The notes: generated by a model not told the origin, from the sequence alone. A DNA stretch of 64,000 nucleotides from Acidimicrobiia bacterium (GCA_035468285.1 DATISY010000067.1:836-64835), one strand, 5' to 3'; shown: positions 29,058-34,947, counted from the stretch's first letter. Numbers and translations: made by a program.

Positions 29058-29555
29058 ATGCGAAGACACCGCAGGCTGGCTGCCAGTGGCGTCATCGCGA
29101 CGGCGGCCGTCTTCACCGCCCTGACGATCTCGCCGGCGTTGGCCGCTCCGCCCAGCCACACCGGCGCCTCGCGCACGGTCACCCCGATCGTCGAGTGCAC
29201 CACCAAGCGCAACGGGATATACCACTCCGTCTTCGGCTTCCGGAACACCGGACCGGCGACCGTCATCGCGGTCGGGAGCCAGAACCGGTTCACGCCCGGC
29301 AACCCCGACCGGGGCCAGCCGACCACGTTCGCCCCCGGCGTCCACATCAACGTCTTCCAGGCCGACACTTCGGCGACGTTGGCCTGGACGCTGGACGGTC
29401 AGCAGGTCCGGTCCCCGGGCATCACCTGCCAGTCCGACCCCGCCTCGAGCTCCCTCGCCGGGTGGGGCCCGATCGGCGCCCTCGTCATCGTGACCGGTCT
29501 CCTCGGCTCGCTGCTGTTCTGGCGGAGCCGCCGTCTGCGGGTGCGCAACTCGTGA
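29058..29555 (+). CDS. Secreted protein with C-terminal TM helix plus Arg-rich tail (candidate exosortase cargo)
   Basis: 165 aa from ATG 29058. Signal peptide MRRHRRLAASGVIATAAVFTALTISPALA/AP, an about 100-aa two-Cys beta-rich domain, then SDPASSSLAGWGPIGALVIVTGLLGSLLFWRSRRLRVRNS. The stop overlaps the GT2 start. Confidence 0.7.
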   Translation: MRRHRRLAASGVIATAAVFTALTISPALAAPPSHTGASRTVTPIVECTTKRNGIYHSVFGFRNTGPATVIAVGSQNRFTPGNPDRGQPTTFAPGVHINVFQADTSATLAWTLDGQQVRSPGITCQSDPASSSLAGWGPIGALVIVTGLLGSLLFWRSRRLRVRNS

Positions 29556-30988
29556 CCGTCGAGGCCCCCGTGCTGGGCGCCGTGCAGCCCCCGGTCGTCG
29601 CCCCACCCATCGCCGCGCCGGTCTCGCCCGCGGTCACCGGCGGCCACGACGTCGCGCCCGGCGCCCCCTGGACACTCCTGTTCCTTCTCGGTCTCGGTCT
29701 CGTCCTCGTCGGTCTCGTCGGCGTCCACGAAGCCAGCCTGCTCGTCATCATCTTCCTGACGGTCCTCTTCCTCGTCTTCCTGCTCCGCCACCTCGCCTTC
29801 GCCATGTCTGCGCTGGCGTCAGCACCACGGGACATGCGGACCCGGAGCGGCTTCGACTACGGCTACCACCCGTTCATCACCGTGATGGTCCCGTGCCGCA
29901 ACGAGGAGCTCGTGATCGAGGGTCTCGTCACGACCCTCATGGCACTCGACTACCCCGACGACTCCCACGAGATCTTCGTCATCGACGACGGGTCCGACGA
30001 CCGCACCGGCGTCATCCTCGACGAGCTCAGTGCCCGCTACCCCGTCCTCAAGTGCATCCACCGCCCGCCCGGCTCCGGCGGCGGAAAGTCCGGCGCGCTG
30101 AACACCGCCCTCGCCGTCGCGCGCGGGGACGTCTGCGTCGTCTTCGACGCCGACCACAAGCCTCGAGCCGATGTGCTGCGCCGCCTGGTCCGTCACTTCG
30201 CCGACCCTGCAGTCAGCGCCGTGCAGGGCCGCTGCATCGTCCGCAACTCGAACGAGACCCGCCTCGCCCGCAGCATCGCCGTGGACTACTACTGCGGCTA
30301 CCTCGTCAACGAGTACGGCCGTCAATCGATGTTCGAGCTTCCCGCCTACGGCGGCTCCAACTGCGCGGTGCGCACGAGCTGGTTGCGAGCCTTCGGCGGC
30401 TGGAACGAGCAAACGGTCACCGAAGACACCGACCTGACCCTCCGGCTCGTGCTCGTCGGTCGTACGGTCCGCTTCGACGTCACCGCGATCGACACCGAAG
30501 AGAGCGTCCCGACCTTCCGGCGGTTCTGGCGTCAGCGGTACCGCTGGGCTCGGGGTCACCAGCAGGTGTGGCGCGAGTACCGCCGTTCCGTCTGGTCGTC
30601 GCGCTCGTTGAGCCTGACTCGCAAGCTCGAAACCACGATGTTCCTCCTCGTGTACCACGTGCCCGTGTTCTGCATGCTGGGCCTCGTCCTGGTGACCCTC
30701 CGGGCCGCGGGCGTGCTCACCTGGGGGACGGGCGTCGACCTGACCCCGATCGCGACGCTGCTGTTCCTCGGTCCCCTCCTCGAGCTGGCCTCTGGTCTCA
30801 TCGTGAGCCGCGCCCCCCGGCGCGCCGCGATCGGGATCCTGCTCTTCCTGCCCGGCTTCGTGATCTTCACCTTCGTGTGCACGAAGTCGTGGGTCGATGG
30901 CCTCCTCGGCCGCCGGTACACGTGGGTCAAGACGGCCCGGACGGGATACGGCCAACAGAGCACCGTGGACGTGGAGGTGATCGCGTGA
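29552..30988 (+). CDS. Family 2 glycosyltransferase, processive synthase type (XrtG-associated-like)
   Basis: 478 aa from GTG 29552 (GTGA overlap). N-terminal TMs, then VMVPCRNEE, FVIDDGSDD, GKSGALN, VVFDADH, TEDTD and QRYRWARG (QxxRW), then 4 or more C-terminal TMs. Confidence 0.9.
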   Translation: MTVEAPVLGAVQPPVVAPPIAAPVSPAVTGGHDVAPGAPWTLLFLLGLGLVLVGLVGVHEASLLVIIFLTVLFLVFLLRHLAFAMSALASAPRDMRTRSGFDYGYHPFITVMVPCRNEELVIEGLVTTLMALDYPDDSHEIFVIDDGSDDRTGVILDELSARYPVLKCIHRPPGSGGGKSGALNTALAVARGDVCVVFDADHKPRADVLRRLVRHFADPAVSAVQGRCIVRNSNETRLARSIAVDYYCGYLVNEYGRQSMFELPAYGGSNCAVRTSWLRAFGGWNEQTVTEDTDLTLRLVLVGRTVRFDVTAIDTEESVPTFRRFWRQRYRWARGHQQVWREYRRSVWSSRSLSLTRKLETTMFLLVYHVPVFCMLGLVLVTLRAAGVLTWGTGVDLTPIATLLFLGPLLELASGLIVSRAPRRAAIGILLFLPGFVIFTFVCTKSWVDGLLGRRYTWVKTARTGYGQQSTVDVEVIA

Positions 30989-31515
30989 ACCGGCAAGGAT
31001 TCGCCGTCCTGGGTCGGCTCGCGATCGCTTTCGGCGCCACCGTCGTCGCCTTCTGGCTCCTGATCGACCCGTGGCGCAACGTCGAGGCGTCGACCATCGC
31101 GCTGCTGTTCCGCAGCGCGGGCGCCCGGGGCGCCAGCCAGGCGTTCGGCAACCAGATCCTGGTCATCCCCAACCACTCGGCACCGTTCTTGGCCACGATC
31201 AGCCCGTCGTGCTCCGCGCTCGCCGCCCTCCTCGCGTTCGCGGCCATCGCCGGGTTCGTGGTGCGCGGGGACCGGCAACGACGGCTCATGGCGTTCCTCG
31301 CCGCCGCGGCCCTCATCCTCATCTGCAACTTCATCCGGATCGGTCTCTCGGTCTTCGTCGGGATCCACACCAACGCGCAGGGTCTGACCGTGTTCCACGA
31401 CTGGATCGGGACCGCGTTCGGGATCCTCTACGTCCTCGGAGGCTTCACCTTGTTCCTCTGGGTCCTGCTGCCCAGCAACCGGACACTCCTAAAGGAATAC
31501 GCCCATGAAAGCTGA
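30985..31515 (+). CDS. Exosortase/archaeosortase family protein, short form (XrtG-like)
   Basis: 176 aa from GTG 30985 (GTGA overlap). Polytopic. Candidate catalytic Cys in ISPSCSALAAL, Arg in ICNFIRIGL and His in VFHDWIGTAFG, in the order and spacing I associate with the exosortase core (CSG...NxxRI...H). Confidence 0.65.
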   Translation: MNRQGFAVLGRLAIAFGATVVAFWLLIDPWRNVEASTIALLFRSAGARGASQAFGNQILVIPNHSAPFLATISPSCSALAALLAFAAIAGFVVRGDRQRRLMAFLAAAALILICNFIRIGLSVFVGIHTNAQGLTVFHDWIGTAFGILYVLGGFTLFLWVLLPSNRTLLKEYAHES

Positions 31516-32152
31516 CACACAGCTCATACTGGTCGCTGCGGGAGCGGCCGCGATCCTGCTGGCGATCGTGTGGCGGTTCCTCGCCCGCGCCCGCCAGATC
31601 CACCGGCTGGAGCGCGCCCTCCGCGGCGACGGGCAGCCCGCCGAGCGGGCCCGCGCCGGGAACACCATCGTCGAGCTCGGGCTGGCCCGGGCGTCCAAGT
31701 CGGTCCTCCAGATGATGCCCAAGGAGCCCGACGACCGGGTCCGCCTCTCGGTGGCCCTCGCTGTCGCCCGACGCCAATGGGAACCGACCCGCGCGAAGCG
31801 GGTCGTGCAGGTACGCGCCTGGGCGAGCGAGGAGCTCGAGCAGCACGGCCGTCCGGTGCGTGAGTTCGGACCGGCCGTCACCCGCCTGGCCGACATGGGC
31901 GGCCCCCGGAACCCCAACCCCCCGCGGCGTCCCAACGGCGCGAACGTCCAACCTGAGGCCCCCACCGCCCCGACCCCGGTCGCGACCCTCGACCCGAGCC
32001 CGGAGCCAGGCACCAACGCCGACGGCAACGGCAACGGGAACGGGAACGGGGCCGACATCATCTACCGGCCCGAGGCGGCCCCGACCCGGGCCCGCAACCA
32101 GGACGGCGCCATCCGCTGGGTCGCGCCGACCGGTAGCGAGCGGACCGACTGA
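31505..32152 (+). CDS. Hypothetical N-terminally anchored protein with disordered Pro/Asn/Gly-rich C-terminus
   Basis: 215 aa, overlapping the upstream gene by 11 nt. One TM (LILVAAGAAAILLAIVW), a helical region, then PRNPNPPRRPNGAN...DGNGNGNGNG. No family recognised. Confidence 0.5.
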   Translation: MKADTQLILVAAGAAAILLAIVWRFLARARQIHRLERALRGDGQPAERARAGNTIVELGLARASKSVLQMMPKEPDDRVRLSVALAVARRQWEPTRAKRVVQVRAWASEELEQHGRPVREFGPAVTRLADMGGPRNPNPPRRPNGANVQPEAPTAPTPVATLDPSPEPGTNADGNGNGNGNGADIIYRPEAAPTRARNQDGAIRWVAPTGSERTD

Positions 32153-33084
32153 TGACCCGGGTCCTCGTCACCGGCGCCGGCGGCGCCGCGGGCGTCGCGG
32201 TCATCCGCGCCCTCGCCCAGGCCGGGCACCACACCATCGCCGTCGACGCCGACGAACGCGCCGCGGGGCTCTGCCTCGCGACCGACGGCCGCGTCATCCC
32301 CCCCGCCAGCGACGCCGCCTTCGGCGACGCGCTCACCCGCGTTGTCGAAGAGACGGGACCCGAGGTCCTGATCGGCACGGTGAGCGAGGAGATCGCCGCG
32401 CTGCACGACCTCCGCGACCGCCTCGCCGACGCCGGGGTCGCGACGTGGCTCCCCCCTGCCGACGCCGTCGCGGTGTGCATCGACAAGTGGAAGTTCGCCC
32501 GGGTCCTGCGCGACGCCGGCATCCCCAGCCCCGTCACGGCGCTGGGCAACAGCCACGACGTCCCCGGCCCCTGGGTCGTGAAGCCCAGGTTCGGGCGGGG
32601 CTCGCGCGATGTGTACCGCGTCGACGACCCGATGGAGCTCGCCTGGGCGTGCCGACGCACTCCCGAGCCCATCGTCCAGACCCGCGCCACCGGCCGCGAG
32701 TTCACCGCCGACGTGCTCGTCGCCCACACCGGACAAATCGCGGCGTGCGTACCCCGGTGGCGGGTCGAGACGAAGGCAGGGATCAGCACGAAGGGTGAGA
32801 CCTTCACCGACGCGGCCATCGACGACGTGGTCGCCCGAACGGTCGAGGCCGTGGGCCTGCGTGGCGTGTCGAACCTGCAGGGGTTCCGAGACGACGACGG
32901 GGTCTGTGTGATCGAGGTCAACCCGAGGTTCTCGGGTGGGCTCCCACTCGCGCTCGCGGCCGGCGCCGACCTCGTCGGTCAGATGCTCCGCGGCGCGCTC
33001 GACGAGCCACTCCAGCTGGAGCGCCTTCGGTACCGGGCCGGTGTCCGGATGACCCGCTTCTTCGACGAACGCTTCGACGGCTGA
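32152..33084 (+). CDS. ATP-grasp domain protein (carboxylate-amine ligase-like)
   Basis: 310 aa with a TGATG overlap. Rossmann-like start RVLVTGAGGAAGVAVIRAL, DKWKF, VVKPRFGRGSRDV and VIEVNPRFSGG are typical ATP-grasp blocks. Confidence 0.8.
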   Translation: MTRVLVTGAGGAAGVAVIRALAQAGHHTIAVDADERAAGLCLATDGRVIPPASDAAFGDALTRVVEETGPEVLIGTVSEEIAALHDLRDRLADAGVATWLPPADAVAVCIDKWKFARVLRDAGIPSPVTALGNSHDVPGPWVVKPRFGRGSRDVYRVDDPMELAWACRRTPEPIVQTRATGREFTADVLVAHTGQIAACVPRWRVETKAGISTKGETFTDAAIDDVVARTVEAVGLRGVSNLQGFRDDDGVCVIEVNPRFSGGLPLALAAGADLVGQMLRGALDEPLQLERLRYRAGVRMTRFFDERFDG

Positions 33085-33085
33085 C

Positions 33086-34237
33086 ATGCGCCTCCTCGTC
33101 CCCTTCGGGACCCGCCCCGAGATCGTCAAGCTCGCCCCCGTCGTCGAGGCGCTGCGCGCCGCCGGTCACGAGGTCCACGCCGTCGCGACCGGCCAGCACG
33201 ACGACCCGCGCCTCTCCGACCGGTTCTTCGTCGACCTCGGTCTCGTGCCCGACGAGCGGTGGTCCCTCCCCCACCTCGAGGCGGAACGCGTCGGCGCGCT
33301 GCTCACCAACGCGTACGAGACCATCGACATGCGCCGACCCGACGCCGTCCTCCTGCTGGGCGACACCCACACCGTCCCGCTGTTCGGGCTCGCCGCCCGA
33401 CGTTTCGGGGTCCCCGTCGCGCACCTCGAAGCCGGCCTGCGGTCCTTCAACGAACGCTCGCTCGAGGAGGTCAACCGGCGCACCGTCGCCGCGATGACCT
33501 CGCTGCACCTCGCACCGACCGACCTCGCGGCCGGGTTCCTCGCCGCGGAGGGGATCGACCCGCGCCGGGTGCGGGCGGTCGGCAACCCCATCACGGACAC
33601 GCTGCGTCTCTACGGCCCCAACCGTCGGCCCCCAGACGAGCGCGACGGCGTCGTCGTCACCGCCCACCGAGCCACGAACGTCGACGACCCCGTCCGCCTG
33701 GGCCACCTCGTGGAGCTCATCCGCCGCCTCGCCGTCGAGGTCGGCCCCGTCCGGTTCCCGGTCCACCCCCGGACCCGCTCCCGGCTCGACGCCACCGGCC
33801 AGCTCGCCGACCTCGTCACCGCCCCCGGGGTCGAGCTCCTCGAACCCCTCCCCTACCCCGAGATGCTCGACGCCATCGCCGGCGCCCGGGTCGTCGTCAC
33901 CGACTCCGGGGGCCTCCAAGAAGAGGCCGCGTGGCTGGGCGTCCCGACCGTCGTGCTGCGCACCTCGACGCCCCGGTGGGAGAGCGTCAACGCAGGGATC
34001 GCGGCCCTCGTCGGCCTCGACCCCGACCGGGCCGTCGCGGCCGCGGTGGCGTTCAGCGACCCGGACACGCAGGCCTGGATCGCCGCGGTGCCGTGCCCGT
34101 ACGGGGACGGGTTCGTCAGCCGGCGGGTCGCCGCGCTGCTCCACGACCCCGAGATCCACGCTCTCCTGACCCTCGAGGAGCCCACGCTCCCGGACGGGCC
34201 GGCCCTGCCCCGCAGCGTCACGGTCGGTGCCCGATGA
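33086..34237 (+). CDS. wecB: UDP-N-acetylglucosamine 2-epimerase (non-hydrolysing type)
   Basis: 383 aa. FGTRPEIVKLAPV, GQH, LLLGDTHTV, VAHLEAGLRSF, EEVNRR and VVTDSGGLQEEA blocks. Confidence 0.9.
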   Translation: MRLLVPFGTRPEIVKLAPVVEALRAAGHEVHAVATGQHDDPRLSDRFFVDLGLVPDERWSLPHLEAERVGALLTNAYETIDMRRPDAVLLLGDTHTVPLFGLAARRFGVPVAHLEAGLRSFNERSLEEVNRRTVAAMTSLHLAPTDLAAGFLAAEGIDPRRVRAVGNPITDTLRLYGPNRRPPDERDGVVVTAHRATNVDDPVRLGHLVELIRRLAVEVGPVRFPVHPRTRSRLDATGQLADLVTAPGVELLEPLPYPEMLDAIAGARVVVTDSGGLQEEAAWLGVPTVVLRTSTPRWESVNAGIAALVGLDPDRAVAAAVAFSDPDTQAWIAAVPCPYGDGFVSRRVAALLHDPEIHALLTLEEPTLPDGPALPRSVTVGAR

Positions 34238-34947
34238 TCGCCGCGGTGCTCTTCGACCTCGACGACACCCTCTATGACCAGCGCCAGTTCCTGGACGGCG
34301 CCTGGCGGGCCGTCGCGGCCCGGGCCGCCCTCGACGGCGTGGACCCCGACGAGTTCGAGTCTGCGCTCCGCGACCTCGCCACCCACGGCAGCGACCGGGG
34401 CCACATCATCGACCTGGCCCTCGCCCAGGTGGGTGCGCCGTCCGTCGCGGTACCCGACCTCGTCGCGCAGTTCCGGCGGCACCGACCCGAGCGGCTCGAG
34501 CCCTACCCCGGTGTGCTCGACGCCCTCACCGGGCTGCAGCGACGCGTGCCGCTCGGTCTCATCTCCGACGGCGACCCGGTCATCCAGCGCGCCAAGCTCG
34601 ACGCGCTCGGCGTCGAGCGGTTCTTCACCAGCGTCGTGTTCAGCGACGAGCACGGCCGCGCGCACCGCAAACCCGATCCCCTCCCGTTCCGACGCGCGCT
34701 CACCGAGCTCGGGGTCGACGCCCGCGACGCCGTCTACATCGGTGACCGCCCGGCGAAGGACGTCGTCGGCCCGGTCGGGGTCGGGATGCGCGCCATCCGG
34801 GTCCAGACCGGCGAGTGGCGTGCCGAGCCCGACGACCCGCGCGCGTGGGCGTCGGTGCCCACCGTCGTCGACGCCGTCACCCTGGTCCGCCGCGCACTCC
34901 CCTGGGTCGCGACGGTCGACGAGCCCGCCAGCGCGGCACATCGCTAG
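34234..34947 (+). CDS. HAD family hydrolase
   Basis: 237 aa with an ATGA overlap. Motif I LFDLDDTLYD, motif II LGLISDG, and motif III/IV KPDP...YIGDRP.KDV. Confidence 0.85.
   Translation: MIAAVLFDLDDTLYDQRQFLDGAWRAVAARAALDGVDPDEFESALRDLATHGSDRGHIIDLALAQVGAPSVAVPDLVAQFRRHRPERLEPYPGVLDALTGLQRRVPLGLISDGDPVIQRAKLDALGVERFFTSVVFSDEHGRAHRKPDPLPFRRALTELGVDARDAVYIGDRPAKDVVGPVGVGMRAIRVQTGEWRAEPDDPRAWASVPTVVDAVTLVRRALPWVATVDEPASAAHR

Follow-up and report, generated by a model that had tools for sequence, protein, structure and literature searches.

A 64,000-nucleotide stretch of DNA from an Acidimicrobiia bacterium (GCA_035468285.1, DATISY010000067.1:836-64835), hereafter the window, carries three consecutive genes encoding an ATP-grasp ligase, a non-hydrolysing UDP-GlcNAc 2-epimerase (WecB) and a HAD hydrolase. 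They close an operon that also encodes an exosortase (Xrt), a family-2 glycosyltransferase (GT2), a small secreted cargo protein and a HEAT-like protein. Comparison of gene order and gene fusions among related loci showed that the enzymes belong to an arm that is inherited together with the exosortase and GT2, and whose parts are fused in relatives to one another and to the exosortase. We propose that this arm is cytoplasmic and tethered to the exosortase, and that it would supply UDP-ManNAc and re-acylate a de-N-acetylated hexosamine, a reading whose chemistry we infer and to which we give an even chance of being correct.

Linkage of the ligase arm to an exosortase

Scanning species-representative genomes with an exosortase alignment returned 10 loci from metagenome-assembled genomes, nine of them with enough sequence to be tested, and the full seven-gene order (cargo, GT2, exosortase, HEAT-like gene, ATP-grasp, WecB and HAD) was present in all nine (9/9). 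Metagenomes were scanned with an ATP-grasp alignment, giving 80 loci, in which ATP-grasp sequences with at least 45% identity were taken as orthologues. Upstream of these orthologues, the exosortase was found in 28 of 33 testable loci and GT2 in 16 of 20, WecB followed downstream in 36 of 41, and HAD was present in 22 of 25. The linkage of the three genes to the GT2/exosortase pair, on which the first-pass annotation had staked its proposal, therefore held. In a quick IQ-TREE analysis with SH-aLRT support, the ATP-grasp orthologues formed a single clade (99% SH-aLRT) that was almost confined to Xrt operons. Close relatives also kept the flanks of the window, with gcvP upstream and lnt/thyX downstream, while the distant loci lacked these flanks, indicating that conservation of the block extends beyond local synteny. 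The arrangement occurred in dozens of independent contigs, far more than expected by chance.

Among 401 genomes of the phylum, a query with the single exosortase protein gave matches in two genomes only, that of the window and that of a relative from the same family. A profile search, in which the profile included ATP-grasp columns, gave matches to the exosortase part in the same two genomes only. ATP-grasp homologues were found in 29 of the 401 genomes, which is the only count that three unpublished genomes (G018, G174 and G226) enter. The GC3-based gene caller was crude and mis-called several loci (e.g. L093), and tblastn and HMM matches were used there. One ATP-grasp orthologue was split between two overlapping frames (L055:11225-12083), reflecting a frameshift or an assembly error.

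Parts of the arm were also found as fused proteins. The HEAT-like protein formed an N-terminal extension of ATP-grasp in 13 of the 120 closest ATP-grasp homologues, and in 20 metagenomic loci the two were read in one frame without a stop between them. In L087, L108 and L109, exosortase, HEAT-like protein and ATP-grasp constituted a single open reading frame, with the HEAT-like region located between the other two domains. A database search for longer exosortase-domain relatives yielded at least 24 protein clusters of 681-847 amino acids (aa) with ATP-grasp Pfam domains. Nine of the 24 carried both the exosortase Pfam PF09721 and ATP-grasp Pfams, and alignment of the triple-fusion proteins showed that they retain the Cys, Asn, Arg and His residues of the exosortase. 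Cultured hosts of the triple fusion were Pilimelia terevasa, Actinoplanes lobatus, A. campanulatus, A. capillaceus, A. flavus and A. hulinensis, one of the Actinoplanes proteins being WP_188122316.1. These proteins are annotated only as 'ATP-grasp domain-containing protein' or 'carbamoyl-phosphate synthase large subunit', and their exosortase domain has thus been overlooked. WecB and HAD were fused to each other in three loci (L084, L086 and L098). Taken together, the gene fusions strongly support a physical coupling of ATP-grasp to the exosortase.

Other exosortase-family proteins, of 362-518 aa (P0136, P0143, P0144, P0146, P0148, P0149 and P0151), had no ATP-grasp Pfams and may be exosortase-HEAT adaptor fusions or shortened triple fusions. 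In the L109 fusion protein, a conserved repeat of the RQWEP...LRLWARAW type was present twice.

Organization of the operon and its proteins

The window has a G+C content of about 72%, and the seven operon genes, all on the + strand, follow one another with start codons that overlap or abut the preceding stop codons. The ATP-grasp gene (32152..33084) starts with an ATG at 32152 that has one base in common with the stop codon of the HEAT-like gene (TGATG). A spacer of 1 nt separates its own stop (33084) from the ATG (33086) of the WecB gene (33086..34237), and the ATG (34234) of the HAD gene (34234..34947) overlaps the WecB stop (34237) by 4 nt (ATGA). The next gene after HAD is convergent. Reading of these boundaries confirmed that the ATP-grasp, WecB and HAD genes are intact, translationally coupled and close the seven-gene operon. 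The span 32152-34947 proposed in the first-pass annotation was exact, and its description of the three genes as an operon tail was borne out by the chained junctions and by the gene order kept in relatives. The trio did not, in turn, prove to be the unit, which comprises at least four genes with the HEAT-like adaptor, together with a deacetylase that is unlinked in the window's clade.

The ATP-grasp protein (310 aa) falls in the PRK12767 'CPS-like' group. It matched ATP-grasp_3 (PF02655) with 64.9 bits against a cut-off of 23.2, and PF15632 was also matched. It scored below the cut-off of every PRK12767 equivalog, the best being NF009405 with 174.5 bits against 390. Its AlphaFold2 model had a pLDDT of 95.8 and was matched by Foldseek to many ATP-grasp structures with a probability of 1.00. 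K144, E255, N257 and R259, corresponding to the ATP-binding Lys of the superfamily and to the Mg-binding Glu/Asn and the Arg of its E-x-N-x-R motif, were invariant or near-invariant. The nearest relative by both sequence and fold was 2pn1 (E 3.9e-17, TM-score 0.84), an Exiguobacterium protein without known function that is titled 'carbamoylphosphate synthase large subunit (split gene in MJ)', and the further fold neighbours were biotin carboxylase, PurT, PurK and PylC. The TupA-like ATP-grasp family was not among the nine Pfam families matched at an E-value of 0.01 or better.

WecB gave 256 bits with Epimerase_2 (PF02350) and, over residues 1-350, 230.1 bits with TIGR00236, above the equivalog cut-off of 210.15, compared with only 36.4 bits against 235.9 for the NeuC model. 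Its best PDB match was 4neq, and because WbpI-type epimerases scored nearly the same (163 vs 180 bits), UDP-GlcNAc is only its putative substrate. The HAD protein (237 aa), a phosphatase-type hydrolase, matched HAD_2 (PF13419; 73.3 bits against a cut-off of 23.8) and PF00702, did not reach the cut-off of the TIGR02253 subfamily (113.9 bits against 169.75) and had PH1655/2hoq as its best PDB match. Motifs I-IV were all present (DLDDT, LISDG, KPDP and GDRPAKD), as in HAD-IA members. Judged by profile scores and motifs, the assignment of the three proteins is firm at the superfamily level, in agreement with the family names that they had been given initially, and the motifs quoted for them in the first-pass annotation were all located.

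The gene preceding ATP-grasp (31505..32152, + strand) encodes a single-pass membrane protein with a predicted N-out/C-in orientation; it has a HEAT-like helical domain in the cytoplasm and a disordered tail rich in Pro and Asn. Its transmembrane (TM) segment comprises residues 7-25, the next 21 residues hold five Arg/Lys, and the match to HEAT_2 was weak. ATP-grasp, WecB and HAD had no TM segment and no signal segment. The TM segment followed by a basic stretch, the enzymes devoid of TM segments and the gene fusions together indicate that the whole arm is cytoplasmic and held at the exosortase, and we read the HEAT-like protein as an adaptor that would tether ATP-grasp to the membrane and to the exosortase. 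The C-terminal half of the HEAT-like protein, rich in Pro and Asn and including a (Gly-Asn)4 run, is poorly conserved, and in relatives conservation was confined to residues 1 to ~140.

The first gene of the operon (29058..29555, + strand) encodes the cargo, a small secreted protein in which an N-terminal signal-like helix is followed by a C-terminal motif, a TM helix and an Arg-rich tail; its hydrophobic segments span residues 7-25 and 136-154. Cargo homologues were located upstream of GT2 in related loci, and their comparison showed an extreme C-terminus of variable length and sequence, in which no acidic end is conserved. The GT2 gene (29552..30988, + strand) overlaps the end of the cargo gene (GTGA) and encodes a 478 aa protein of the cellulose/chitin/PNAG-synthase-like type, with the motifs DDGSDD, DAD199, TED290 and QRYRW328 and four TM segments, as in processive beta-glycan synthases. 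It matched Pfam GT2 families, remained below the equivalog cut-off of the NCBIfam model PgaC_IcaA (127.4 bits against 422.3), and its best PDB sequence match was the membrane GT2 6yv7, followed by BcsA.

The exosortase gene (30985..31515, + strand) overlaps the GT2 end, also by GTGA, and is overlapped by the HEAT-like gene by 11 nt. The encoded mini-exosortase of 176 aa has four hydrophobic segments and the residues C76, N115, R118 and H138, which were invariant in 18 sequences and agree with the exosortase/archaeosortase superfamily, and it matched the generic signature TIGR04178 with 44.4 bits against a cut-off of 23. It belongs to no named Xrt type, and NCBIfam held no specific model for it. 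XrtS (29.4 bits, cut-off 145) and XrtR (18.5 bits, cut-off 150) were rejected. The initial label of XrtG had to be abandoned as well, both proteins being far under the HMM cut-offs of that system (17.2 bits against 102.75 for the exosortase with TIGR03110, and 65.8 against 363.95 for the partner GT2 with TIGR03111).

A deacetylase partner and the supply of UDP-ManNAc

Gene neighbourhoods showed that a specific predicted PIG-L de-N-acetylase is a recurrent partner of the exosortase/ATP-grasp arm. In 15 more distant Xrt operons, a gene for a PIG-L (LmbE-type) GlcNAc de-N-acetylase was located directly upstream of GT2. In the window's genome, the PIG-L encoded at G000 contig C14:5010-5729 (L152:5010-5729) was 53-55% identical to these operon-linked proteins, compared with no more than 32% for the six other PIG-L paralogues. 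The C14-type subfamily was present in six of the 401 phylum genomes, four of which also hold an ATP-grasp homologue; two of these four have the Xrt operon, and in the other two PIG-L abuts a paralogous ATP-grasp. The C14 protein was 61% identical to the copy of a related genome (G357), which is also unlinked to the operon there.

The sister ATP-grasp clade (36-42% identity) was always preceded by a response-regulator (RR)-PIG-L fusion, and the ligase was followed by GT2 and then usually by a histidine kinase, without exosortase, WecB, HAD or cargo. Still more remote ATP-grasp homologues adjoined PIG-L or a DegT aminotransferase, HAD and sugar transferases. We also observed a widespread four-gene actinobacterial unit consisting of RR-PIG-L, a paralogous ATP-grasp (36-53% identity), GT2 and usually a PAS/CHASE3 histidine kinase (L121:7473-15910, L136:8835-15479 and L088:8137-14573; also L034, L036 and L119-L142). 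Apparently a signal-controlled system of glycan modification, this separate unit has neither exosortase nor WecB nor HAD, and we know of no description of it.

The genome to which the window belongs is 92% complete, and WecB was its single PF02350 match. A gene of the TagA/WecG family was searched for in this genome and was not found, and the only nucleotide-sugar dehydrogenase scored as UDP-glucose type (432 bits for TuaD against 179 for WecC) and is encoded elsewhere. Since WecB was the only such epimerase found, with neither WecG/TagA nor a WecC-type dehydrogenase alongside it, it most likely supplies UDP-ManNAc solely for the exosortase/GT2 system. The dehydrogenase gene lies directly after a gene for an LCP-family glycopolymer transferase (L144, G000 contig C127:544-4086), which suggests a separate uronic-acid wall polymer.

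Proposed chemistry, alternatives and relation to known systems

In the sequence of reactions that we propose, WecB would convert UDP-GlcNAc to UDP-ManNAc for the synthase, and PIG-L, operon-encoded in relatives and presumably provided by the C14 gene here, would free the amine of a hexosamine on a precursor or primer. ATP-grasp, kept next to the exosortase at the membrane through the HEAT-like adaptor, would activate a carboxylate as an acyl-phosphate and join it to a hexosamine amine; it is the recurrent deacetylase partner that points to the freed amine as the site of joining. HAD would act as a phosphatase on a substrate or product that carries a phosphate. In this way an N-re-acylated glycan or primer containing hexosamine (HexN)/ManNAc would arise, to be exported by GT2 and used by the exosortase system. 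The aminoacylation of a ManNAc/GlcNAc unit, as put forward in the first-pass annotation, is plausible, with the recurrent PIG-L deacetylase as indirect support.

The proposed order of de-N-acetylation and re-acylation would resemble that of PIG-L/LmbE pathways (mycothiol MshB, bacillithiol BshB, and the teicoplanin deacetylase and acyltransferase), in which the GlcNAc amine is freed and then acylated by a second enzyme. To our knowledge, the acylating enzyme of these pathways is not an ATP-grasp, and neither a processive synthase nor an exosortase takes part. The pairing of an ATP-grasp ligase and a HAD phosphatase with surface-polymer sugar machinery is reminiscent of the Campylobacter jejuni HS:2 capsule, for which the ATP-grasp Cj1438C takes a phosphorylated amine as substrate and the phosphate is then removed by the HAD Cj1435 (PMC11800379); a sequential action of this kind is only proposed here. 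In both cases the ligase is joined to glycan machinery, Cj1438C by fusion to a GT2 and the window-type ATP-grasp by fusion or tethering to an exosortase. Cj1438C, however, is TupA-like and amidates a GlcA carboxylate, whereas the window's enzyme is of the PRK12767/ATP-grasp_3 type and has a PIG-L partner, and a uronic-acid route was not found.

Several observations weigh against the re-acylation that we propose. The role given to HAD is drawn solely by analogy with C. jejuni, and the ATP-grasp departs from that precedent in not being TupA-like. PDB sequence and fold searches with the ligase returned only generic ATP-grasp enzymes and no functionally informative neighbour. The window's operon has no PIG-L, and the C14 gene stands alone among the housekeeping genes serA, leuA and leuCD. 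Furthermore, PIG-L enzymes are known for activity towards GlcNAc glycosides and not towards UDP-GlcNAc, so that the exact acceptor can be named only tentatively. Exceptions to the linkage were also found and were confirmed with an exosortase HMM. At L093:10001-12806, the genes occurred in the swapped order ATP-grasp, HAD, WecB, with no Xrt or GT2 within 10 kb, indicating that the trio can exist on its own, and in L088, L105 and L112 ATP-grasp was found without the tail, either alone or in another context. In addition, the genomes behind the phylogenetic profiles are few and related to one another. The genes neighbouring the L093 trio encode a transporter, a SnoaL protein and an M50 peptidase.

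If the three genes were a generic cell-wall ManNAc or teichuronic-acid pathway merely adjoining the GT2/exosortase pair, it would be no surprise that WecB is a common cell-envelope enzyme and that close relatives are syntenic over the whole region, flanking gcvP and lnt included. We find this explanation hardly credible, since the genes remain linked in distant loci whose flanks differ, the tail is joined to the exosortase by gene fusions, and the clade of ATP-grasp orthologues is almost restricted to Xrt operons; a WecG/TagA gene was not found, and the lone nucleotide-sugar dehydrogenase scored as UDP-glucose type and not as WecC. Quite unlikely, in our view, is an amidation of the Cj1438/Cj1435 type, in which ATP-grasp would join a phosphorylated amine to a uronic-acid carboxylate of the glycan (e.g. 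ManNAcA) and HAD would then remove the phosphate. This chemistry has a documented precedent in the ATP-grasp and HAD acting on a capsule sugar (PMC11800379), and the ATP-grasp-HAD pair also occurs in other glycan clusters (L042 and L044). However, no sugar dehydrogenase was found in the operon or in the operons of relatives, the sole nucleotide-sugar dehydrogenase of the genome is of the UDP-glucose type and lies beside the LCP gene on another contig, the ligase had no TupA-type Pfam match, and the recurrent deacetylase points to a sugar amine and not to a carboxylate.

ATP-grasp enzymes that extend protein C-termini are well established, and the ligase might act in the manner of RimK, LysX or TTL on the C-terminal tail of the cargo or on the cleaved sorting peptide, with WecB and HAD serving the glycan only. 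Its direct fusion to the exosortase via the HEAT-like domain and the cytoplasmic location of the Arg-rich cargo tail would suit such a protein or peptide ligase. We nevertheless consider this role improbable, because in the sister clade the ligase is accompanied by RR-PIG-L, GT2 and a histidine kinase but by no exosortase or cargo, the cargo C-terminus is variable and lacks a conserved acidic end, and the nearest fold neighbours are small-molecule ligases. The first-pass annotation had also offered a ligation of cargo to glycan by ATP-grasp. A direct, ATP-driven ligation of this kind is topologically unlikely, since exosortase chemistry is thought to take place on the outer face of the membrane and ATP-grasp has no signal peptide and would lie behind an N-out/C-in anchor; the gene fusions nevertheless speak strongly for its physical coupling to the exosortase. 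A further possibility, which we regard as unlikely, is that ATP-grasp, PIG-L, WecB and HAD build the exosortase acceptor, an acyl- or aminoacyl-hexosamine with a free amine on the GT2 glycan or primer, to which the cleaved cargo would be transferred.

The system resembles XrtG/Firmicu-CTERM of Firmicutes in having a small Gram-positive exosortase-family enzyme beside a GT2 and a dedicated, C-terminally tagged cargo. It differs from the XrtG system in that its exosortase and GT2 fail TIGR03110 and TIGR03111 and its operon adds ATP-grasp, epimerase and HAD. As described for L. plantarum, that system comprises a CTERM protein, XrtG and two glycosyltransferases, without ATP-grasp, epimerase, HAD or deacetylase (PMC12854382). 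Full-text literature searches returned no paper linking exosortases with ATP-grasp enzymes, the one paper in which both terms occurred being unrelated, so that the pairing of ATP-grasp and exosortase, initially called unusual, appears to be undescribed. A literature search found nothing joining ATP-grasp, 2-epimerase, HAD and amide in a polysaccharide context. The actinobacterial operon, an exosortase and glycan system with a tethered arm of ligase, epimerase, phosphatase and deacetylase, has no name. New in the present work are the HEAT-ATP-grasp, exosortase-HEAT-ATP-grasp and WecB-HAD fusions, the operon-encoded PIG-L and the single genomic WecB.

Exosortase systems are known mostly from gene neighbourhoods, and the partner to which the cargo is attached is an open question. 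The co-inherited epimerase, ATP-dependent ligase, phosphatase and deacetylase narrow the chemistry of the acceptor or glycan to a few reactions that can be assayed, and the cultured Actinoplanes species and Pilimelia terevasa are hosts open to genetics. If the arm does build the acceptor, these operons would spell out the long-unknown acceptor chemistry of an exosortase, in culturable Actinoplanes.

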